Assembly (NCBI GenBank): GCA_000092065.1
Contig: CP000582.1
DNA: 64,000 nt
Strand: one strand, 5' to 3'
Source: Ostreococcus lucimarinus
Lineage: Eukaryota
Shown here: one piece after another, positions 4,170 through 54,112 of the stretch
Layout: every line of letters starts with the position of its first letter
Position numbering within the stretch: the stretch's first letter is position 1
The notes under the pieces: model-generated
Seen by the model: only the letters and a program-made list of their open reading frames with translations
Databases searched by the model: none
What the model was told of the DNA's origin: nothing
Made by a program: the position numbers and the translations under genes

Positions 4170-6158
4170 ATGCCGATCAAAAGAGCGTCATACCGCAACG
4201 CGGTGGTGTGCGCTTGCGCTTCTCTTTTCCTCTTCGCCGTTTGCGCTTTGCCAATCAACGCCGAAAATCCTACTGAAATCACGGGCACGGTGATCGGCAT
4301 AGATCTCGGCACGACGTACTCTTGCGTTGGTGCATACGTAAACGGTAAAGTCGAGATCATCGCTAATGATCAAGGGAACAGAATCACACCATCTTACGTC
4401 GCATTCACCGATTCTGAAAGACTAATCGGAGATTCGGCCAAGAACCAGGCGTCTGCCAATCCTACTCGGACGGTGTTTGATGCAAAGCGGCTCATCGGCC
4501 GAAAATTCACGGACAAAGAAGTACAACGCGATCTTAAGATGTTCCCATTCAAAGTTGTGGACAAAGACAGTAAGCCATGCATTGAAGTTGAACTCAAAGA
4601 AGGCAAGAAGGTTTTCCAGGCTGAAGAAATTTCAGCGATGGTTCTCACGAAGATGAAGGAGACCGCCGAGGCGTACCTGGGTAAGGATATCAAACACGCC
4701 GTCGTAACTGTCCCAGCGTATTTCAACGACGCACAGCGTCAAGCGACAAAAGATGCTGGTGTTATCGCTGGCTTAAACGTCGCCCGCATCATTAACGAAC
4801 CCACAGCTGCGGCGATTGCATATGGGTTGGACAAGAAAGGCGAGAAAAACATTCTTGTTTTTGATCTCGGAGGAGGTACGTTCGACGTATCGATTCTCAC
4901 GATCGACAACGGTGTTTTTGAAGTCATCTCCACGAACGGAGATACTCATTTAGGCGGTGAGGACTTCGATCAACGTATCATGGAATATTTCATGAAACTC
5001 ATCAAGCGCAAGCACGGCAAGGACGTATCAGGCGACGTGAAGGCTGTGCAAAAGCTTAGACGTGAAGCCGAAAGGGCTAAGCGAACTCTTTCCAATCAAC
5101 ATCAAGTGCGAGTCGAAATCGAAGCTCTTTTCGATGGGATCGATTTCTCTGAACCCCTTACTCGCGCCCGATTTGAAGAGCTGAACAACGACCTCTTCCG
5201 CAAGACCATGGGACCTGTCAAAAAAGCCATGGATGACGCGGGCATGAAGAAGAGCGAAATCGACGAAATTGTGTTGGTCGGTGGTTCGACTCGAATCCCG
5301 AAGGTTCAGGACCTCCTTCGAGACTTCTTCGACGGCAAGGAACCAAACAGAGGAGTCAATCCTGACGAAGCTGTTGCGTACGGCGCCGCTGTGCAAGGTG
5401 GAATACTTTCGGGTGAAGGCGGCGATGAAACCAAAGATATCCTCTTATTAGACGTGGCACCGCTTACTCAAGGTATTGAAACTGTTGGAGGAGTTATGAC
5501 GAAGCTCATCCCCCGTAATACGGTTATCCCAACTAAGAAGTCACAAACTTTCACCACTTATCAGGACAACCAGCAGACGGTAATGATCCAGGTTTTCGAA
5601 GGCGAACGAGCGATGACTAAAGATAATCATCTTTTGGGTAAGTTCGAGCTCACCTCAATCCCTCCAGCTCCTCGCGGTGTGCCTCAGATTGAGGTCACTT
5701 TTGAAATCGACGCAAATGGCATCCTGAACGTTGGCGCTGAAGACAAGGGAACAGGCAAATCAGAAAAGATCACCATAACGAACGACAAAGGACGGTTGTC
5801 GCAAGAAGAAATTGAGCGCATGGTCGAAGAAGCAGAAGAATTTGCGGAAGAGGATAGGAAGACGAAGGAACGCATTGACTCGCGTAATAGTCTTGAGACG
5901 TTTGCGTACAACATGAAAAACACGATTTCTGACTCCGACAAACTCGCTGACAAGCTCGACGACGACGACAAAAACACGATTGAGGAAGCAGTCAAAGAGA
6001 CTCTTGACTGGTTGGATGAAAATCAAAGCGCTGAAAAAGAAGACTACGACGAACAGCTGAAGCAGCTCGAAGAAGTCTGCAACCCTATTGTGGCCAAAGC
6101 GTATCAGAGCGCGGAAACGGACGATTCGGAGACTGTTGACGAACACGACGAACTTTAA
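4170..6158 (+). CDS. BIP: ER-lumenal Hsp70 chaperone BiP/GRP78.
   Basis: Hydrophobic signal peptide ([20 protein letters not shown]), Hsp70 motifs [12 protein letters not shown] and [10 protein letters not shown], and a C-terminal ER-retention signal HDEL. Intronless 662-aa ORF. Confidence 0.95.
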
Positions 6159-6276: not shown

Positions 6277-6960
6277 CTATCCCGCCCTCAACCGTACAGA
6301 GTGCCGTTGAATCAGAATGCCGTTGAATCGATCAATGCCCTCTTCGCTAAACTTAGTACCACAGAGTTTAAAAAATGTGAAAGCAGTCAGCAAACTATCA
6401 CTTCCAGCTTGATGTTGTGGACCAATCCTCTCTACTTGCAATAAATCAGCGAGTTTGTTCAGTCCACCGTGTATATTGCCTAGTCGCTTCATCATGAGTT
6501 TCATATCGTAAACTTGTGGGAAGTACTGGTTCAACAGCTCAAAGAACTCGCTTTCTTTTTCTGGAAGTTCTTTACAAGTTGGCAGTTTCAGCAAGTACCC
6601 GAAATCGTAGCCACTGTGAAATGTGATCCAACTCTCTTCATCATTCAATACTACATCACTGACCATCAACAACTCCCCAAACTTTTTGACGTCGATACCG
6701 CGCACTTCGAAGGTAACAAAATCAATGCCGCTTTGTTTCAAAAGCTCTATTGAGTCGCGCGCGTATACATCTTCCCGGAGGCTGAACTCTTTGAAATTGA
6801 ATTGCCAGATACAGTATTGACCATTTACGTGTGCAAGATGTCCGTCGCCGTCAGTGAATGTCAGCCCTAACTGTATAAAGCATATCAACGTTGCAACGCA
6901 GCATGTGATAGTGAAAATCGGACTGTATATAGGGTTGAAAGCCCTTGACTATTGACTTCG
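6277..6960 (-). CDS. CAF1/POP2 deadenylase (CCR4-NOT subunit 7-like). The N-terminal exon or exons are unresolved.
   Basis: The ORF 6277..6888 aligns with CNOT7 from IQLGLTF through WQFNFKF, FHSGYDFGYLLK and ERIGPQHQAGSDSLLT. The upstream peptide ..FHYHMLRCNVDML (about 6872-6960) lies in a different frame; see the findings. Confidence 0.75.
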
Positions 6961-13829: not shown

Positions 13830-14130
13830 GAGAAACCTTGGGGCGTGGTTCCACGCCCCAAGGTTTCCAGAAAGTAATACATACTGATATCATACGTTCG
13901 CCGACATATAGAGAATGAACCCAATCCCGTATTATAGTGGTTCTAACGCATATGTCTACACTACATGACCTAGACCTACATATAGACTTAGCGCGTATGA
14001 ATAAGCATCGGACAAGCACGCACGGCATCCATCGCGACTTATAAACCCAAGGTTTCTCAATTTAGACTTTCGCCGTTTTGCGATGGTGTATAATAAGCGT
14101 TGACAACACTATAATACAGGATTGGGTTCA
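13830..14130. repeat. Intergenic inverted-repeat structure, a partial copy of the short-TIR MITE-like family also seen at 45.3 kb.
   Basis: Perfect 17-bp-stem hairpin gaaaccttggggcgtgg/ccacgccccaaggtttc centred near 13850. The motif agaaagtaatacatactgatat (13868-13890) is shared with 45405-45427. An inverted pair gaacccaatcccgtattatagtg (about 13915) and cactataatacaggattgggttc (about 14107) flanks it. Confidence 0.4.
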
Positions 14131-14159: not shown

Positions 14160-17006
14160 GTGTGGCGCAGCACTCGGTCGATCACAGTTTTTTTATTCAG
14201 CTGCACCAGTTCGCACGCGGAATTTTCCATAACTCGCGACCCGAACCCGATGAATGTACGAGCAGCGCACCGTACGCTTCAATCACTTGTGAGAGTGCGA
14301 AGTTTCGGGCTACTCGGCTGCCGGCTCGCACGGTGTACGTCAGACTTAGCGGACAGCTCAACAACTCTGTTGCCGTTGTTGCGTACACGAAGTACAGGCG
14401 TAATACCGGTTATCAACGTGCAGTCGAGCCGTAGCGCATGCGTCGGTACAAGGGGGATTCTAGATGAGTATGAACAGCATAAAAACGACAGGGCCCAACT
14501 CGGTATACCCGCAAAACCTCTCTCTGCGAAGCAAGTATCAGAACTGATTGCCTTGCTGGAAGCACCGATCAGCGAAGAAGAAGACCGCATATATGATATG
14601 CTAGTAAACTGCATTTCACCTGGTGTCGATGAAGCGGCATATGTTAAGGCAGGTTGGCTTGCAAGTGTAAGCAAAGGCAAGACTGTGAGCCCGTTAGTAT
14701 CGCGGGAAGATGCCGTCCGTATCCTTGGCACCATGCAGGGTGGATACAACATCTCGCCTCTTATTGATGCACTTGATTATGACGACTTGGGTCGCATTGC
14801 CGCTGCCGCTCTTTCTGACACCCTGTTGATATTCGATGCATTTTACGATGTTCAAGAGAAAGCAGATAAAGCAAATAAGTATGCCATGCAAGTAGTGCAG
14901 AGTTGGGCGGACGCAGAATGGTTCACAAAGAAGAGCCCACCACCATCAAAAATCACTGTAACAGTGTTCAAAGTGCCAGGTGAAACAAATACCGATGATC
15001 TTTCGCCCGCTCAAGATGCATGGAGTCGCCCCGATATTCCTCTGCACGCCCTTGCGATGCTCAAATCACCGCGTGAAGGAATTCAAAACCCGATTTCTCA
15101 AATCGACGAACTCAAAAAACTTGGATATCCACTGGCGTATGTTGGCGACGTCGTTGGGACTGGTTCGTCACGTAAGTCTGCAACGAATTCTGTCTTGTGG
15201 CACATGGGTATTGACATTCCGAACGTTCCCAATAAACGCACTGGAGGAGTATGCATCGGTGGTAAAATTGCTCCAATTTTCTTCAACACAATGGAGGACA
15301 GTGGGGCATTCCCTATCGAGATGGACGTGAAGAATATACACATGGGTGATGTCATAGATATATTCCCGTATGAGGGTTTAGTCAAGAAACATGGCACAAA
15401 TGAGGTTATCACAACTTTTTCCCTGAAGAGTCCTGTGCTATTGGATGAAATTCAGGCTGGTGGGCGCATCCCACTCATTATTGGTCGATCGTTGACTGAT
15501 AAAGCTAGAAATGCATTGGGTCTAGAGCCTTCTGAAGTATTTCAAGTGCCCCAGGTCTCTAAATCACGTTCTAAGGGGTTTACACTCGCACAGAAGATGG
15601 TGGGGAAGGCATGTGGTGTGGCTGGGATACTTCCCGGCACATACTGCGAACCTCGTGTAACGACTGTGGGGAGTCAAGATACGACTGGTCCTATGACACG
15701 TGACGAGTTGAAGGATCTGGCTTGTCTTGGTTTCACCGCCGATTTAGTCATGCAGTCTTTTTGCCATACGGCTGCATATCCCAAGCCTGTTGATGTTGAC
15801 ACTCACCACACTCTCCCCACTTTTATTCGCAACCGTGGCGGTGTATCGCTTAGACCAGGAGATGGGGTCATACACAGCTGGCTGAATCGTATGCTCTTAC
15901 CTGATACAGTAGGTACAGGTGGCGACTCGCACACTCGATTCCCGATTGGGATTTCGTTTCCAGCTGGCTCTGGTTTAGTAGCATTCGGTGCTGCCACTGG
16001 AGTTATTCCTCTCGACATGCCAGAATCAGTACTTGTTCGTTTCACTGGGCATCTACAGCCAGGTATTACTTTGCGGGATCTTGTCCACGCTATTCCACTG
16101 CAGGCAATTGAAGATGGATTACTTACAGTCGCAAAAGAAGACAAAGTCAACGCCTTTAGTGGGCGTATTTTGGAAATTGAAGGTCTTGAGCATCTGAAGT
16201 GTGAACAAGCATTTGAACTGTCAGACGCTAGTGCTGAAAGAAGTGCGGCTGGCTGTACAATTAAGCTCGACGAAGCAAGCGTAAAGGAGTATCTTACTAG
16301 TAACGTTGCTCTTCTTAAGTGGATGATAGCCAATGATTATGGTGAGGTTCGTACTCTCGAGCGCAGAATCCTCGCGATGCAACAATGGCTCGCTGCCCCA
16401 GAGCTTTTACGGGCTGATGATGATGCTGAGTACGCTGCGACGATCGAAATTGATTTGAACGCAATCACAGAACCTATATTATGTGCACCGAATGATCCAG
16501 ATGACGCACGTACACTTTCTTCTGTAGTTGGTGATAAAGTTGACGAGGTGTTCATAGGCTCTTGCATGACGAACATTGGTCATTTCAGAGCTGCGGCAAA
16601 GCTTTTGAACGACAATCTCAGTCAGCTTCCCACTCGACTTTGGGTGGCACCCCCAACAAAGATGGACGAATTGCAGCTGAAAGTTGAAGGACATTACAGC
16701 ACTTTTGCTACGGTAGGCGCGAGGACAGAGATGCCAGGGTGCTCTTTGTGTATGGGAAACCAAGCGAGAGTTGCTGAAAAGAGCACAGTAGTTTCTACAA
16801 GTACTCGGAACTTTCCCAATCGTCTTGGTAAAGGTGCAAATGTTTATCTAGCATCTGCAGAACTTTCTGCTGTTTGCGCGATTCTAGGCCGAATACCATC
16901 AAAGGAAGAATACTTGAGCCATGTTGAAGTGCTTACGAACAGTACTGACACGTACCAGTACCTCAACTTCGACAAATTGAGCTATTACACAGATGTACGC
17001 GAGTAA
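14160..17006 (+). CDS. acnB: Aconitate hydratase B (bacterial-type AcnB, bifunctional aconitase/2-methylisocitrate dehydratase) with an N-terminal presequence.
   Basis: A 948-aa intronless ORF that is colinear and highly similar to proteobacterial AcnB along its whole length ([89 protein letters not shown]). It has an additional ~70-aa S/T/R-rich N-terminal extension. Confidence 0.9.
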
Positions 17007-17051: not shown

Positions 17052-18149
17052 TTATTCGTCAGAAATGTAATCGTAAAATGCCCTGACTTTCTTGCCAAGC
17101 TGTTCCACAGTTTTGTCGTCTGATGAAAAGTCGACATCGTGCCCAAATTCTAGAATTAGTACTGGCTTCTACATATTTCCCGATCCAAGGCGCAACCAAA
17201 CATGGTGAGTTCATGCTTTTGTGTCAAAAGCTCGATACTGACATACCTTTTTAAATTGACTACACATGTGGTCTGTCACAAAACCTATCGTTAAGGTCTC
17301 CTGATGTTTTTTCCCGACCGTGAGCGCTCTCACATCCTGGTTGGGAATGTCATTAACCTCAATTTCAACTTAACAATTTCGTAATACTTGTAACAGCCAC
17401 TTTTCATGTTTGTAGTGTAGTGATTCAAGGTACTCGAGTGTGATGTTAAGCTCCTCACCACGCGCCCGCCGCTGAAGCCGCTCCATGCACACATCTGGCT
17501 CAACTCTCAAATATATAAACCCATCTGGAATCAGGGAGGGTAAGGCCTTCAGCTACACGTCAGTGCACTTGATAGAGAAACTCAAATCTACTTCACGCAC
17601 ATTTATCATGGGATACAACCAAGCGTTGTAGAGATCAGCCTCAAGCTCGGATAACCAGCCTTGTTCGTGCACTGACTCGACAAATACGTTTCGGTCAGAA
17701 AAAACACTGCGTTCAGTTATTCTTAGTAGTTTCGATGTTCCTGCGCTTTGTCGCTCTTGCAAATACCGAGTCATAAAAACATAATTCTGGAACACATATG
17801 CATATCTTTCTGGATTGGTGTAAAATTCTTTGAGCAAGTTATGAGGAGGATTGCTTGCACTTTTTCGCGGCACGCTTTGCCAACTTTGAACCGGTTCTGG
17901 GACAGTGTACACCAGATCCTATATTCACCAAATGAGTAGAGAGTATAACAAACCGAATCACATACTTCTAGGCGTGAGGCGCTTGAGAGCACCTCTGACA
18001 AAAATGTACTTTTGCCTGAACTGATGTTCCCTTCTACGCAAAGGCTGACCTGGAAAACATTTATCTCGAACTGTTTGTCAAGAAGACGGAACTTACCTTG
18101 TAAGCTGTGTCAAGCGCTTGACGAGAACTGCAAGTGACGTCAGAGAGCA
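17052..18149 (-). CDS. Deoxynucleoside kinase (dCK/dGK/TK2 family), multi-exon.
   Basis: Exons reconstructed on the minus strand. The P-loop exon reads [12 protein letters not shown] (about 18000-18060); the next exons read [26 protein letters not shown] (17597-17912), [32 protein letters not shown] (17388-17524) and the C-terminal [13 protein letters not shown]. Five predicted short introns of 48-77 nt. The stop is near 17052 and the ATG near 18147. Confidence 0.7.
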
Positions 18150-28936: not shown

Positions 28937-31177
28937 ATGTACACGTCTTCAACTCGACTGGCACTGGCTCAAAACCTCAACCAGACTCGAGTCGCGCGCC
29001 CGCGATGTGCTGGGGGGCACGGACGAAACGCCGACAGTCTTCGCCCCGTGATTACGCGAAAATTGAGCGCACGTGCGCGTAATGGGCGCTCAGGCACACG
29101 GTTCGTGCCAAATCGTGGTTCTGAGCAGGATATCTTATCTGAACTTGAAGAAGCGCAAGAAGGAGGAATTGCTGGCTACGGCGTCATCTCGTCCAAACCT
29201 ACGACACCCCTTTTGGATACCGTGCAGTTTCCGAGCCATTTGAAGGGTTTAAACATGGATCAACTCAAGCAAGTCGCGAAAGAACTACGTGCAGACCTAA
29301 TCTACAACGTATCTCAGACAGGAGGGCATCTTGGTTCGAGCCTCGGAGTTATTGAGCTCACCGTCGCACTCAATTACGTATTCGACCAACCGAACGACAA
29401 AATCATATGGGACGTGGGGCATCAAGCTTACCCTCACAAAATTTTGACGGGAAGGAGGGACCAAATGAACACCATGAGACAAACAGGCGGGTTATCACCT
29501 TTCACGAAGAGAAGCGAAAGTCCTTATGACTGCTTTGGGGCGGGACACAGTAGTACGTCCATTTCGGCAGGTCTTGGAATGGCTGTCGCTCGGGATATGC
29601 AAGGCGGCGATAATCATGTCATCAGCATAATCGGAGACGGGGCAATCACGGGGGGGATGGCGTATGAAGCTATGAACAATGCTGGATTTCTGGACACGAA
29701 CATGATCATCATCTTAAATGATAACCAGCAAGTGTCGCTTCCTACGCAATACAACAGTATGAATCAAGATCCAGTGGGTGCGCTTTCGTCGACATTCGCT
29801 CGTCTTCAGTCGTCGCGCCCTCTACGCGAGTTGCGCGAGTCTGCCAAGGCGATTACCAAACAGATGCCAACCCCTGTGCAAGAGGTCACCGCAAAAGTTG
29901 ACGAGTATGCGCGTGGTATGATTAGTGGATCTGGCTCGACTCTATTTGAAGAGCTCGGACTATATTACATCGGAACTGTTGATGGGCATAATTTGGAGGA
30001 TTTGGTCGCCATTCTGCAAGAAGTAAAAGAGACAAAGAGCGTTGGTCCCGTGTTGATTCACATCGTGACCGAGAAGGGCCGAGGCTACTCTTATGCCGAA
30101 GACGCTCAAGACAAGTACCACGGTGTATCCAAATTCGATCTCGCTTCCGGTGAACAAAGCAAATCAACAGATACAATCCCCACTTACACGAAGGTGTTCG
30201 CCGATGCCTTGATTGGAGAAGCCATGGCTGATGAAAAGGTTGTGGCCGTGCACGCTGCCATGGGCGGGGGAACGGGATTAAACCATTTCGAGAAATATTT
30301 CGCCGATAGAACGTACGACGTCGGCATTGCGGAGCAACATGCCGTGACTTTCGCTGCGGGTCTTGCATGTGAGGGATTGAAACCCATGTGTACGATTTAT
30401 TCAACATTTTTGCAACGTGGCTGGGATCAAGTTGTTCACGACGTAGCGCTGCAGAAACTTCCGGTGAGGTTTGCGATGGACCGTGCTGGCTTGGTTGGCG
30501 CGGATGGACCAACTCATGCTGGTGCGTACGATGTGACGTTCATGGCGTGCCTTCCCGATATGGTCGTTATGGCGCCGATGGACGAGGCAGAGCTGTGTCA
30601 TATGGTTGCAACATCTTTAGCTATTGACGATCGTCCCTCCTGTTTCCGCTATCCTCGGGGTGCGGGCGTTGGGGTCAACATGGAAAATGAGAGCGTCAAA
30701 GTGCTCAATCCAGGATACAAGGGTATGGTGTTAGACATTGGGAAAGGCCGAGTTCTACGCGAAGGAACCGATGTCGTTCTGTTGGGTTATGGTACTCCAA
30801 CGAATAACTGTTTGCTGGCTGCCCAAATGTTGCAAGAGTTCGGCGTCAGCGCCACCGTGGCGGATGCTCGATTCTGCAAACCTCTGGACGTCGAACTCAT
30901 TCGTCGCTTGGCAAAATCACACCCAGTTTTCATAACGGTAGAGGAAGGTTCCATAGGCGGCTTTGCGTCTCACGTGTTGCACTTCCTAGCGACTGACGGA
31001 CTGCTCGACGGCGGCTTGAAGGTTCGACCAATGGTACTTCCCGATCGTCCAATTGATCACGGTTCGTATGCATTCCAGCTTAACGAGGCTGGACTTAGCG
31101 TTTCGCACATCGCATCTACGGCGCTTTCGCTTGTCGGGAAGCAAAATGAGTCTCTCGAGGTTTTAGCAAGAGTCTAG
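28937..31177 (+). CDS. dxs: 1-deoxy-D-xylulose-5-phosphate synthase (MEP pathway) with a transit-peptide-like N-terminus.
   Basis: TPP/transketolase-like motifs [38 protein letters not shown] and the C-terminal DRPIDHGS. A 746-aa intronless ORF. The N-terminal ~70 aa are S/T/R/A-rich with no hydrophobic signal peptide. Confidence 0.9.
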
Positions 31178-34160: not shown

Positions 34161-34741
34161 ATGAGTATCCCGAGTGTGAGTAGCATTGTGATCTTAGATG
34201 ACGAAGGGAAGCGGGTCGCAGTCAAGTATTACGAAACATTGAAGTACGTCATTTCTCTCTCCATAACTTTGCCTAGATGAATGTCCATTCTTGTAGGCGC
34301 GCACGAGACGTACAGTTCACGTTTGAGCGAAATTTGTTTACCAAGTCGTCCCATTTAAGTGGGAAAGGCGAAGTAGAACTTCTGATTCTCGATGACTACA
34401 TCGCTGTCCACAAAGCCAGCCACGACTTGCGTTTCTATGTAGCTGCACGTCACGATGAAAACGAATTGATTTTAGTATCAGTTCTTGAAACTTTGTATGA
34501 GGCACTTTGTACTCTTTTGAGAGGAGTAGTCGACAAACACGCTGCATTAGAAAACCTTGACCTCGTCCTATTAGTCATCGACGAGTTAATAGATGGTGGG
34601 CTTATATTGGAAACAGATCCGACCACTATTGTGAATCGTGTTTCGATGGAAGAAAGTATGGAGCACTCCCTTACAGAACAAACCATTTCTCAAGCGCTGG
34701 CCACGGCTCGTGAACAGATATCTCGTAACTTATTACGCTGA
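34161..34741 (+). CDS. COPZ: Coatomer zeta subunit (COPZ), two exons.
   Basis: Exon 1 is 34161..34243 (MSIPSVSSIVILDDEGKRVAVKYYETL). A 53-nt intron GTACGT..TTGTAG spans about 34244-34296. Exon 2 from about 34297 reads RARDVQFTFERNLF..LRFYVAARHDENELILVSVLETLYEAL..LENLDLVLLVIDELIDGGLILETDP, colinear with COPZ1. Confidence 0.8.
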
Positions 34742-37588: not shown

Positions 37589-39313
<1,725 letters not shown>

Positions 39314-51330: not shown

Positions 51331-54112
51331 TCACGTAAATTTCCCTCCACCTCTCGTGGCAAACTCACGTGACGTCTTCTTGCGCGAAAAATTACCGTAT
51401 GAATCACGCTGCTTTCCCTTCAAACCGCGGTCAGGCACTTCAAAGGTGAAAAAACGGCTGCGTTCACTTCTGGACCGTCGCGACTGATACTCGTCAGCGT
51501 CAGCTGAGTTCTTCACCTGCCGTCGAGATCGAGCAATTGGTTCATCATCCTCCTGGTAACTGATATTCTTCGAACCGATATGGCGATCCAATGCCCGTTC
51601 ACTTGCGTCCAGCAAGACGAGGACTTTCTCAGAAAAAGTGTTTGCAGCGACTTGCAGTCGTGAGTGAGCCACTTGACTTAAAGATACACTTTGTGCAACA
51701 TCATAGAAGACTGCTGGAACCTCTTCATTAGCTATCATCGAGTTCACAATGGAACGCACTTTCTCTTCACTCATTGAGACCATTTCGGCAAGAATACTGA
51801 CGCTTGCAGACGTGTACTGTTCCGCAAACTGATGCAAATAAAGTCGGATAGCTTCTATTTTGAGCTGTTCATCTATGAGGCGAACTATCCTTTCCTTTGA
51901 TTCGGGCAAAGAATTCCATACTGATAAATTGAGAACAAGCTGCGATGCCACGTGATAGTTTCCAGTGAGTAACATTTGGGTTGCTACCATAATAGTATCA
52001 CGTGCTCCATCTGGTGGACCTGTAAAAAGTTGCCTACGATGATTCTCGATGACTCGCATGAAATTACGTGGAAAAGGTCTCGTCTTTCTCGTGCAGAACA
52101 AGTCTGAAACCTCTAACAGCATTGAACATGTGAGAAATATACTTTCGATGAGATCAATATTGATGTGCAGATGATGAGGTATCTGACGCCGTCTTTCAAG
52201 CTTTTCTTGTTCCGCAGAACGCTCAAACCGAGCTTGTGTTGAGCCTTGTGCAAGTAGCTCCTTTGCTCGCCCGCTTGCGCACAATTCGGACAAGTAAGTG
52301 AATGCTTCGACGAAATTGCCACGCTCAAAGGCACATATTCCTAGTTGTGCAACTGTTCTATTGAAAAGGATTTGCGTGCTAATGTCCATGTATTGAATAA
52401 CTTCTTGCAAATGTGACATAAGAAGCAAGTCTTTCGCTGTTTTGAAATCTCCACGAAGTGCCTCACTGAAAATTTGACAAAGGAGCGCACGGGCTTTGGC
52501 CCGCTCATCACCATGCTTGTAAATGTAAGTAGCCAACATCTCAATCGTTGTGAAGAGTCCTTCAGCAGGGAATTCAAAAGAAGTGGCAAACATTTCAACT
52601 TCGGAGTTTTGATGACTAGGTTCGACGGTGTCATTGTTCGCCGAACAATGAATTTTCGAAGTGGTGTATTTCCTGAGTGCTTCGTGTGAATGACAGCGTT
52701 TACAGTACAACTTCTCCAAAAGCCGCAGAGACAAACTCGCGACGTGCTTCGTGTTCTTGTTTCTATAGAATTCAGTAATTTGCGAAAGAAGAATGAGTAA
52801 CATCCCCTCGTCTTGCAGTCTATTGACGTAATCCTTTGTATGTGCATCAATGCATTGTAGCGACTTGGTGTATTCGTCGTCCAAGCGCTCAGTGAAAGCA
52901 CAAAGAGATCCACGAAGTTGAATGTTTGCTCCTGCAATGATCTCGTCATTTGATGGGCGTATAGCTATCTCTTCTTCATCCACTAGTGAGATGTGGCTAT
53001 TCGATTTCAATAACTGTAAAATGCTGAGTACATTGCTTAAACAACTGCGCCACACAGGGACCGGCATAAATGTCGACATGCTACCAGTCAGGTCGAATTG
53101 TGCACTGATAATATGCAAAAGTACCTCAACCTCTTGCGCAGGGCACTTTGATAGGGTTGAAATATACCTCAACTGCTCGACTACACGTGTCCTGTCGACG
53201 CCTTTCTTTCCTCGAGACATGGCGATATCTTTGAGCTTCGAATCGATCATTTCAAACGTGACGTCCTCTTTGGGAATATTCATGATATCTTGCATAGATT
53301 TCTCAGCTGGATCTAATGGAATTTTCTCTTTTGTGTCGTCGATTGTTTCTGATGTGGTGTCACTGTCTGAGGCTTCGCCTGTCTTCAGGAAAAGCTCCGC
53401 GGCAGCAACGTCGGCAGGTTCGATCGCACGAATGTGCTTCTTAACTCTTTGATTCAGTGAATTGAACGCCTTTGCCTGCGAAGTAGACATTTGCTTCTTG
53501 AACTCCGGTTCTTGTGAACATATATCCAGCTCAGCAGCCAAAGATACTAACGTTCGAGCGAAGAGTTTCAAACTGCTACCTGTCCGCGTAGAAGACTGCG
53601 TGCTCTTCAAAAACTGCTTGTGGAACCCGTCCAGGAGACCGAGGAGAGATGGCCAATCCCTTGCCGTTGTTGCACGCCGGATCCCCAGCGTGCACTGCTT
53701 CAGCGTCTCATATTGTTTTTCCTGAGTGCAACGTTGAGAAAATTTTACTCGTTCAGTTCAACGACGTACCTTTGTACTGCGTATGATACGCCTTTCATCC
53801 TCTGAGCTATCTGAACTGTCATCTTGCAAGTATCTGCGAACGAAAGACAACTGGTGAGTATTCACAGGAGCCTAGGGTTTGTTCGCCAGGTTCGAGATCG
53901 AGAAAGGCCGCGCTCGAGACGCCGCACGAGATGACGAAGGCGTACTTAGATGGGCCATGATCTGAATCAGAACTGGAGCTGTACGACGACGACGACGACG
54001 ACGTCGACGTCGAATCGTCGGAAGAGTAATCCGTGCTCTCTTCGCTACTGCCATCGCTTCCTCCCCAGAATTTGCTCGCCTGTACAGGAAAAGACGGCGC
54101 GTTAATATACAT
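51331..54112 (-). CDS. Translation initiation factor eIF3 subunit c (NIP1).
   Basis: The 759-aa ORF 51331..53610 has a PCI region resembling eIF3c (LLLMSHLQEVIQYMDISTQILFNRTVAQLGICAFERG) and an RG/RS-rich C-terminus. An acidic Ser/Asp-rich N-terminal exon lies at 53819..54112 (..ASKFWGGSDGSSEESTDYSSDD), matching eIF3c MSRFF..SDSESE. Confidence 0.75.
53985..54016. repeat. (GAC/GTC)n trinucleotide microsatellite inside the eIF3c N-terminal acidic exon.
   Basis: The run acgacgacgacgacgacgacgtcgacgtcgaa encodes a poly-Ser stretch on the minus strand. Confidence 0.6.

Follow-up and report, generated by a model that had tools for sequence, protein, structure and literature searches.

A nuclear gene for a bacterial-type aconitase B with an N-terminal presequence in Ostreococcus lucimarinus

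We analysed a stretch of 64,000 nucleotides from Ostreococcus lucimarinus (assembly GCA_000092065.1, contig CP000582.1), referred to here as the window, in which an uninterrupted open reading frame (ORF) at 14160-17006 on the plus strand encodes an aconitase of the AcnB type. A preliminary description, made from the sequence alone, had read this ORF as an intronless nuclear gene for a bacterial-type AcnB with an added N-terminal extension of the targeting type, and our Pfam and equivalog searches, together with the linkage and the composition of the gene, agree with that reading. The locus is an already annotated gene, the presence of AcnB in Mamiellophyceae and Chloropicon is already published, and a systematic study of 2025 treats the origin and targeting of ACNB (PMC11976288), so that the window provides a confirmation rather than a discovery.

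An intact AcnB gene and its orthologues

The ORF comprises 948 codons when read from stop to stop and counted from a GTG. Its first ATG lies at 14250 and opens a 918-aa product followed by a TAA stop, which is an exact match to the O. lucimarinus CCE9901 protein XP_001416185.1 / ABO94478.1 / UniProt A4RSV0, annotated as 'aconitate hydratase (B)' on an 895,087-bp record. On the basis of this match and of the AcnB equivalog model TIGR00117, the complete coding sequence, which is itself free of introns, extends over 14250..17006 (+). The preliminary description had therefore placed the ORF correctly but not its start, which is the ATG at 14250 and not position 14160. The in-frame stretch without an ATG that precedes it (14160..14249, +) was part of the earlier 948-aa ORF; annotated and metagenome-called products begin at the ATG at 14250, and the stretch is probably non-coding 5' untranslated sequence. 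Apart from the ATG at 14250, every Met codon among residues 1-200 belongs to the conserved core, and a downstream start would therefore not yield a full-length, untargeted isoform of AcnB. Three minus-strand ORFs within the gene (14279-14752, 15098-15412 and 15803-16333) are treated as by-products of the long conserved ORF.

The domains of the protein follow one another in the order HEAT-like, swivel and catalytic, which is that of AcnB and had been proposed for this ORF. The HEAT-like domain, specific to the N-terminus of AcnB (Aconitase_B_N, PF11791; 3.1e-59), lies at 14466..14924 (+), corresponding to residues 103-255 of the 948-aa ORF, and is complete over profile positions 1-153. It is followed by the swivel domain, placed N-terminally as in AcnB (Aconitase_2_N, PF06434; 14958..15581, +; residues 267-474), which is likewise complete over profile positions 1-204 (1.4e-96), and by the catalytic aconitase domains 1-3 at 15582..16994 (+), within which the Pfam Aconitase match (PF00330; residues 563-910) spans 15846-16889. 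The equivalog models for AcnB reach residue 945 of the 948-aa ORF and score far above their cutoffs, with 1455.1 bits against 1287.2 for TIGR00117 (profile positions 1-844 of 844) and 1429.9 bits against 782 for NF006690. By comparison, the window protein reaches only 23.1 bits with the AcnA model TIGR01341 (cutoff 945) and 38.5 bits with the mitochondrial aconitase model TIGR01340 (aconitase_mito; cutoff 825), and its best matches are AcnBs rather than mitochondrial AcnA- or IRP-type enzymes.

Alignment to E. coli AcnB (PDB 1L5J) is colinear over E. coli residues 2-854 and shows about 72% identity, in part as long uninterrupted stretches, which bears out the full-length colinearity with proteobacterial AcnB and the very high conservation claimed earlier. 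We take the [4Fe-4S] cluster ligands of the E. coli enzyme to be C710, C769 and C772, as numbered in the 1L5J structure paper; their equivalents in the algal protein are Cys772 (16563..16565, +) and the pair Cys831 and Cys834 in a C-S-L-C motif (16740..16751, +). Moreover, 325 of the 333 positions that are invariant among 37 proteobacterial AcnBs are kept in the algal protein. Judged by this conservation, the protein is an intact AcnB that is under purifying selection.

The closest database proteins are other Ostreococcus AcnBs, at 75-81% identity, among them that of O. tauri (P0141, a cluster-mate of P0004; 81%). The next matches are Micromonas-like, Ostreococcus sp. RCC789, Bathycoccus and Pyramimonas sequences and algal transcripts from MMETSP and EukProt, which are interleaved with Gammaproteobacteria (71-74%). 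The AcnB of Ostreococcus sp. RCC789 (P0179/P0013) is only about 74% identical to that of O. lucimarinus and hence no nearer to it than gammaproteobacterial AcnBs (about 73%); the variable part, one third of the protein, seems to be saturated and the rest nearly frozen, which would limit phylogenetic resolution. One match, labelled 'MAG: ... [Euryarchaeota archaeon]' (P0146; NCBI MBI20060.1), falls into the 90%-identity cluster of the Ostreococcus-like AcnB P0005 and is probably an algal contig mis-binned into an archaeal metagenome-assembled genome (MAG). In published work the AcnB (K01682) orthologues of O. tauri, O. lucimarinus (JGI 35987), two Micromonas species and Bathycoccus (Bathy14g02860) all reach E = 0, and core chlorophytes yield only weak matches, to their AcnA-type enzyme (Lemieux et al., 2019; PMC6731263). 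The view that AcnB-type aconitases are uncommon in eukaryotes was thus overstated, given the orthologues in other Mamiellales, Pyramimonas, a haptophyte and a dinoflagellate, the further eukaryote-type sequences, and the Chloropicon and diatom enzymes that the literature adds.

Nuclear linkage and native composition

AcnB lies among genes of eukaryotic character. Its neighbours in the window encode the mu and sigma subunits of AP complexes, BiP with an HDEL terminus, CAF1, Ndc80, a DEAD-box helicase, a deoxynucleoside kinase (dNK), a GPN-type GTPase, SRP54, DXS, TAF4, the mitochondrial F1-beta subunit, POLR3C, an SMP-domain protein and eIF3c. The window as a whole (1-64000) is dense with such housekeeping genes and has a GC content of about 46%. 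The gene order Ndc80, PhyH, WD40, DEAD-box helicase, AcnB, dNK, Asn synthase ... SRP54 recurs in independently assembled marine metagenome contigs from ENA and JGI, for which 23 AcnB-carrying contigs were read. In addition, O. tauri carries the orthologous gene on chromosome 2, at 0.54 Mb (L128, CAID01000002.2:532690-555446), in sequence of 45-49% GC and with dNK adjoining; the adjacency of AcnB and dNK is kept between the two Ostreococcus species, and their other neighbours are rearranged.

The composition of the gene is that of its surroundings. AcnB has a GC content at third codon positions (GC3) of 0.42, and its relative synonymous codon usage correlates with that of the pooled neighbours at r = 0.69, among the highest values in the window, so that by both measures, which the preliminary description had proposed comparing, it is a compositionally native gene. 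About 72% identity to enterobacterial AcnB and the lack of an intron could make one suspect a bacterial contaminant or a chimeric assembly instead of the algal nuclear genome. This idea is contradicted by the same linkage in the independent ENA and JGI contigs, by the O. tauri orthologue deep in chromosome 2 beside dNK, by a composition equal to that of the neighbours and by the eukaryote-type presequence. The linkage common to independent metagenome contigs and O. tauri rules it out, and we regard contamination, which the preliminary description had named as one outcome that would overturn its reading, as exceedingly improbable.

Published work on the Ostreococcus genomes gives an overall GC content of over 59% and names low GC, introns of 40-65 bp and clustered housekeeping genes as hallmarks of BOC1, the region of the big outlier chromosome (PMC3491373); in O. 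lucimarinus this chromosome is chromosome 2 (PMC3491373; PMC2367439). The window matches this low-GC BOC1 region, a candidate mating-type or species-barrier region, and would by that match belong to chromosome 2. In a comparison of three loci (L128, L129, L130), the Bathycoccus-like AcnB locus has 41% GC and the Micromonas-like orthologue lies in sequence of 69% GC, with a GC3 of 0.89. The GC3 of AcnB is 0.34-0.42 in O. lucimarinus, O. tauri and the Bathycoccus-like contig, all three of them in low-GC outlier sequence, and the named Bathycoccus AcnB gene lies on chromosome 14, the outlier chromosome of that species.

Intron-containing surroundings, as described earlier, were verified in the adjoining gene. 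Two exons of dNK (17370..17912, -) are separated by a 54-nt GT-AG intron at 17547-17600 (44% GC), and splicing raises the dNK profile score from 72.6 bits to 139.9 bits in one continuous match. A P-loop piece of dNK (VNIGSG, ~17900-17960) stands in another frame and implies at least one more small, possibly non-canonical intron upstream. The ORFs of CAF1 (6277-6888, -), AP-sigma (34277-34741, +) and eIF3c (51331-53610, -) each match their Pfam profile in its C-terminal part only, which indicates further upstream exons and hence more small introns in the region.

Between the DEAD-box helicase, about 100 nt past its stop, and AcnB lies a perfect 17-bp inverted repeat at 13832-13867 (GAAACCTTGGGGCGTGG-tt-CCACGCCCCAAGGTTTC). 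It occurs once in the window (0.01 chance matches expected), which rules out a repeated element, and has a partial copy, CCCAAGGTTTC, near 14047; perhaps it forms a 3'-end hairpin.

One eukaryotic clade near Gammaproteobacteria

The phylogeny proposed for this gene was built by neighbour-joining (NJ) from 826 columns and 82 sequences, with 200 bootstraps and two distance corrections (Kimura and gamma), and it included beta- and alphaproteobacterial AcnBs from chromids, with distant AcnBs as outgroups. A single clade takes in all 34 eukaryote-type AcnBs in 190-191 of 200 bootstraps (95%), among them those of Mamiellales, Pyramimonas, a haptophyte and a dinoflagellate. Azospirillum and Betaproteobacteria make up a separate group (92-99% bootstrap). 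Among the best 80 species-representative bacterial genomes almost all are Gammaproteobacteria, at 68-73% identity; the exceptions are a Polyangiaceae MAG, a 'Deltaproteobacteria' MAG and an unclassified proteobacterial MAG.

A 7-residue loop (PDQPGVV in E. coli) is missing from all eukaryotic AcnBs except P0113, which has a partial 5-residue form. It is missing as well from Methylococcales, Ectothiorhodospira, Halothiobacillaceae, one Pseudomonadales MAG, two delta-type (Myxococcota-like) MAGs and most distant outgroups, and it is present in Enterobacterales, Vibrionales, Alteromonadales, Pseudomonas, Acinetobacter, the beta and alpha sequences and giant viruses. One sequence that might have counted as eukaryote-type outside the clade, P0073, was rejected as a bacterial ORF called too long, since its extension lacks an initial Met and it carries the bacterial long-form loop. 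NJ weakly pairs the eukaryotic AcnBs with Enterobacterales/Pasteurellales (~50% bootstrap), a donor contradicted by the short-form indel of the eukaryotes, and because of this conflict we name no donor below the level of 'Gammaproteobacteria-like'.

Identity values alone could suggest a recent transfer from a marine gammaproteobacterium specifically into Ostreococcus: gammaproteobacterial AcnBs are about as similar (70-73%) as some congeneric or other algal ones (72-75%), and the Bathycoccus genome paper reports an enrichment of putative transferred genes on outlier chromosomes. The codon usage and GC3 of the gene are nevertheless indistinguishable from those of its neighbours, and presequence-bearing orthologues occur in O. 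tauri (syntenic with dNK), RCC789, Bathycoccus, Micromonas-like lineages, Pyramimonas, a haptophyte and a dinoflagellate, all within the one 95% clade. Native codon usage and a eukaryotic clade spanning several algal groups rule out such an 'alien' gene, and its recent arrival is very improbable.

A derivation from an endosymbiont, either the alphaproteobacterial ancestor of mitochondria or the cyanobacterial ancestor of plastids, possibly with AcnB already present in the last eukaryotic common ancestor (LECA), would also place the eukaryotic sequences in one clade across several supergroups. It gains from the proposal that LECA may have held redundant aconitase orthogroups (Santana-Molina et al., 2025; PMC11976288) and from the use of AcnB by Cyanobacteria (PMC4224347), of which no named sequence is in our tree. 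Set against this are the 80 closest bacterial species, which include 0 alphaproteobacteria and 0 cyanobacteria, the grouping of the Azospirillum AcnBs with Betaproteobacteria and apart from the eukaryotes (92-99%), with four indel differences, and the published description of ACNB as non-alphaproteobacterial (PMC11976288). Every eukaryotic carrier with a name, whether from this analysis or from the cited papers, is moreover an alga, a pattern that suits a later spread among algae better than presence in LECA. We consider an endosymbiotic origin improbable, though less so than a recent transfer.

We therefore favour a single ancient acquisition, now common to several algal groups, from a Gammaproteobacteria-like lineage whose AcnB was of the short form. 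Several features of the analysis tell against so definite a statement. The trees rest on neighbour-joining with simple distance corrections, and the alphaproteobacterial sample consists of Azospirillum only; the nesting of the eukaryotic clade within a Gammaproteobacteria-dominated assemblage reaches 90% with the Kimura correction but 48% with the gamma correction, and the 7-residue indel is at odds with the weakly supported sister position to Enterobacterales. Among algae AcnB may have spread vertically, via secondary endosymbiosis or from eukaryote to eukaryote. The preliminary description had left both the acquisition and the organelle as open questions, and these are now largely addressed by a single eukaryotic clade among Gammaproteobacteria-like sequences, apart from Azospirillum, and by the mitochondrial signals reported for ACNB (PMC11976288).

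Presequence, predicted role and comparison with known aconitases

The core homologous to bacterial AcnB starts at residue 70, counted from the ATG, and is preceded by a 69-aa presequence (14250..14456, +) that ends in GTRG and is absent from bacterial AcnB. It contains 10 R, 9 S, 7 T and 2 D with 0 K and 0 E, in agreement with the S/T/R-rich extension of about 70 residues first described, and it has a net charge of +8, its first acidic residue at position 32 and a maximal helical hydrophobic moment (muH) of 0.58. Set beside the bacterial homologues, it has the properties of a matrix presequence, being positive, nearly acid-free and capable of forming an amphipathic helix. SSR-SA at about residue 61 and GTR-G at residue 68 are possible, non-canonical sites for the mitochondrial processing peptidase (MPP) just before the core. 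All eukaryote-type homologues examined carry an extension, 22-129 residues long as called, although the gene call probably reaches too far upstream in the longest cases; the extensions are Arg-rich and acid-poor, their sequence is not conserved, and several end in RxF(A/S)S(A/S) immediately before the core.

The window itself supplies proteins for comparison. The ORF of the mitochondrial F1-beta subunit (37619-39313, +) opens at an upstream ATG (MCGSSQ...), its real start being probably a Met 34 codons downstream (MRRTLSN...), and its presequence ends in RTYASA. In the DXS ORF (28937-31177, +) the N-terminal extension measures about 92 aa; it is a plastid peptide that is also Arg-rich, with a muH of 0.37 against 0.58 for AcnB. 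The BiP ORF (4170-6158, +) has a signal peptide and a C-terminal HDEL. The AcnB N-terminus resembles the F1-beta presequence more than the DXS transit peptide, which we count as weak evidence.

A stronger argument comes from algae with complex plastids. The AcnBs of the dinoflagellate Polarella and the haptophyte Scyphosphaera, and further AcnB orthologues, have no hydrophobic signal peptide (maximal 12-residue hydropathy of at most 1.7, against 2.6 for BiP), from which it follows that they cannot be plastid proteins in such algae. Short presequences of the mitochondrial type without a signal peptide in complex-plastid orthologues thus favour the mitochondrion. This is in line with published analyses, in which ACNB is listed as an enzyme that bears mitochondrial targeting signals and whose origin is non-alphaproteobacterial (Santana-Molina et al., 2025; PMC11976288) and in which one of two predictors assigned Chloropicon AcnB to mitochondria (Lemieux et al., 2019; PMC6731263 supplement).

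Other observations argue against a mitochondrial assignment. The comparison within the window has one reference per class, mitochondrial and plastid peptides of green algae are hard to distinguish, the 69-aa presequence is long and has no unambiguous MPP motif, and the second predictor scored Chloropicon AcnB as 'other' (PMC6731263 supplement). AcnB might then be imported into the chloroplast, or into both plastid and mitochondrion, and supply plastid citrate/isocitrate or 2-oxoglutarate instead of, or besides, serving the tricarboxylic acid (TCA) cycle. The length of the extension, its Ser/Thr-rich second half with few charges, as in many transit peptides, the likewise Arg-rich DXS peptide and the lack of a mitochondrial call from one predictor are all compatible with this destination. 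The first 31 residues, Arg-rich, acid-free and with the higher muH, speak against it, as do the short presequences ending in RxFASA of the complex-plastid orthologues, for which plastid import is excluded by the missing signal peptide, and the mitochondrial signals published for ACNB (PMC11976288). On balance a plastid or dual destination is unlikely, and we infer from the sequences that AcnB is located in the mitochondrial matrix.

Taken together, we think it very probable that the gene is a nuclear, presequence-bearing AcnB which stems from one old Gammaproteobacteria-like acquisition, and whose product is imported into mitochondria for the TCA cycle. AcnB would be made in the cytosol with its positively charged presequence of 69 residues, most probably be imported into the mitochondrial matrix and then lose the presequence, and the mature enzyme would serve the TCA cycle by interconverting citrate and isocitrate. 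The gene behind it, now compositionally native, would descend from the old acquisition. A TCA role is made likely by the absence from Mamiellophyceae of PrpC and PrpB, the partners of a 2-methylcitrate cycle (Lemieux et al., 2019), and acnB is routinely taken to be the aconitase of the TCA cycle in proteomic work on diatoms and in metatranscriptomic work on protists.

AcnB may even be the sole aconitase of Bathycoccaceae, having fully replaced ACO2 and AcnA/IRP there and perhaps in numerous marine algae as well, an idea that we put forward tentatively and rate below even chances. A PLAZA-based study gives 'ACO3 orthologs' for Ostreococcus and Bathycoccus, OL01G00690, OT_03G02850, ORCC809_01G05860 and BPRRCC1105_01G00570 (PMC8331168, supplementary alignment file 3). 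In that alignment all four begin with MYDKII.DH.V and are LeuC-like, and the Micromonas 'ACO3 orthologs' of the same study look like monomeric isocitrate dehydrogenase (IDH). We rejected these proteins as canonical aconitases of the three genera, because they are LeuC-like or IDH-like, which suggests that Ostreococcus, Bathycoccus and Micromonas could be without a plant-type ACO. A look-up of KEGG K01681 in the Chloropicon supplements did not find it. The reciprocal pattern of core chlorophytes, with an AcnA-type enzyme and only weak AcnB matches, is a further hint that fits the idea.

If AcnB were indeed the sole aconitase, a Gammaproteobacteria-like enzyme with a HEAT-like domain would be the only aconitase of these algae, and it could act as a sensor of iron or redox state in iron-poor oceans by virtue of traits known from bacterial AcnB, namely lability under oxidative stress and iron shortage and binding of RNA by the apo-form. 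The low-GC outlier region of Ostreococcus and Bathycoccus, which is the candidate mating-type or species-barrier region, would then also contain an essential TCA gene. Independently of this idea, the gene is a clean example of a bacterial, non-mitochondrial enzyme of central metabolism that was given a targeting peptide and now seems to drive the TCA cycle of picoalgae that are ecologically dominant, and it bears on how chimeric eukaryotic core metabolism is.

Full-length AcnB-type aconitases are also encoded on giant-virus MAG contigs (L089 and L097-L123, IMG/VR GVMAG; viral status by database label), at 59-66% identity. Several have short Arg-rich N-terminal extensions that resemble mitochondrial presequences, for example MNRVLRRGLSTFKD and MFVKRILNPSKRAYSTFKRQ, a hint that viral AcnBs could be sent to host mitochondria. 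They share the full-length architecture and in some cases the Arg-rich extension with the algal protein, but form a separate viral clade with 100% support and carry the 7-residue insertion, and hence were not copied from the algal AcnB clade. Giant viruses were rejected as source or vector for the same reasons; a gamma-corrected grouping with the eukaryotes in 118 of 200 bootstraps is probably a long-branch effect.

Among algae, the AcnBs of Mamiellophyceae and Chloropicon primus (O. tauri XP_003075081.1/Q01EA0, Bathy14g02860, Micromonas 104770/31433 and A3770_07p46120) share the family and the type of N-terminal extension with the O. lucimarinus protein. The Mamiellales orthologues fall inside the eukaryotic clade, and the O. 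tauri gene is likewise on chromosome 2, in low-GC sequence and beside dNK. They differ in identity, which is 74-81% even within Ostreococcus, in presequences that are not conserved and in the ordinary high-GC sequence around the Micromonas-like gene, and Chloropicon AcnB is outside the present tree, its orthology resting on Lemieux et al. (2019). The AcnBs of diatoms and other marine protists, such as Thaps3_22914 of Thalassiosira pseudonana, are regarded as TCA-cycle aconitases in the literature, and the haptophyte and dinoflagellate proteins share the eukaryotic clade and presequences of the mitochondrial type. In contrast to O. lucimarinus, presequences in this group are shorter (29-50 aa) and have a clear RxF(A/S)S(A/S) end; no named diatom is in the tree.

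With E. coli AcnB (1L5J) the algal protein shares the domain order, about 72% identity over the mature length, the [4Fe-4S] cysteines and scores above the equivalog cutoffs. It differs in its added 69-aa presequence, its nuclear encoding and the missing 7-residue loop. The E. coli enzyme has features of its own, namely bifunctionality with 2-methylisocitrate, iron-dependent dimerisation, binding of mRNA by the apo-enzyme and iron sensing, to which the algal protein can be compared in sequence only. The canonical eukaryotic aconitases, mitochondrial ACO2 and cytosolic IRP1/AcnA, with Chlamydomonas Cre01.g042750 and Arabidopsis ACO1-3 as examples, are alike in reaction and Fe-S chemistry and distantly homologous in their catalytic domains. 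They have the swivel domain at the C-terminus and no HEAT-like domain, and with their models, aconitase_mito and AcnA, the window protein attains only the low scores given above.

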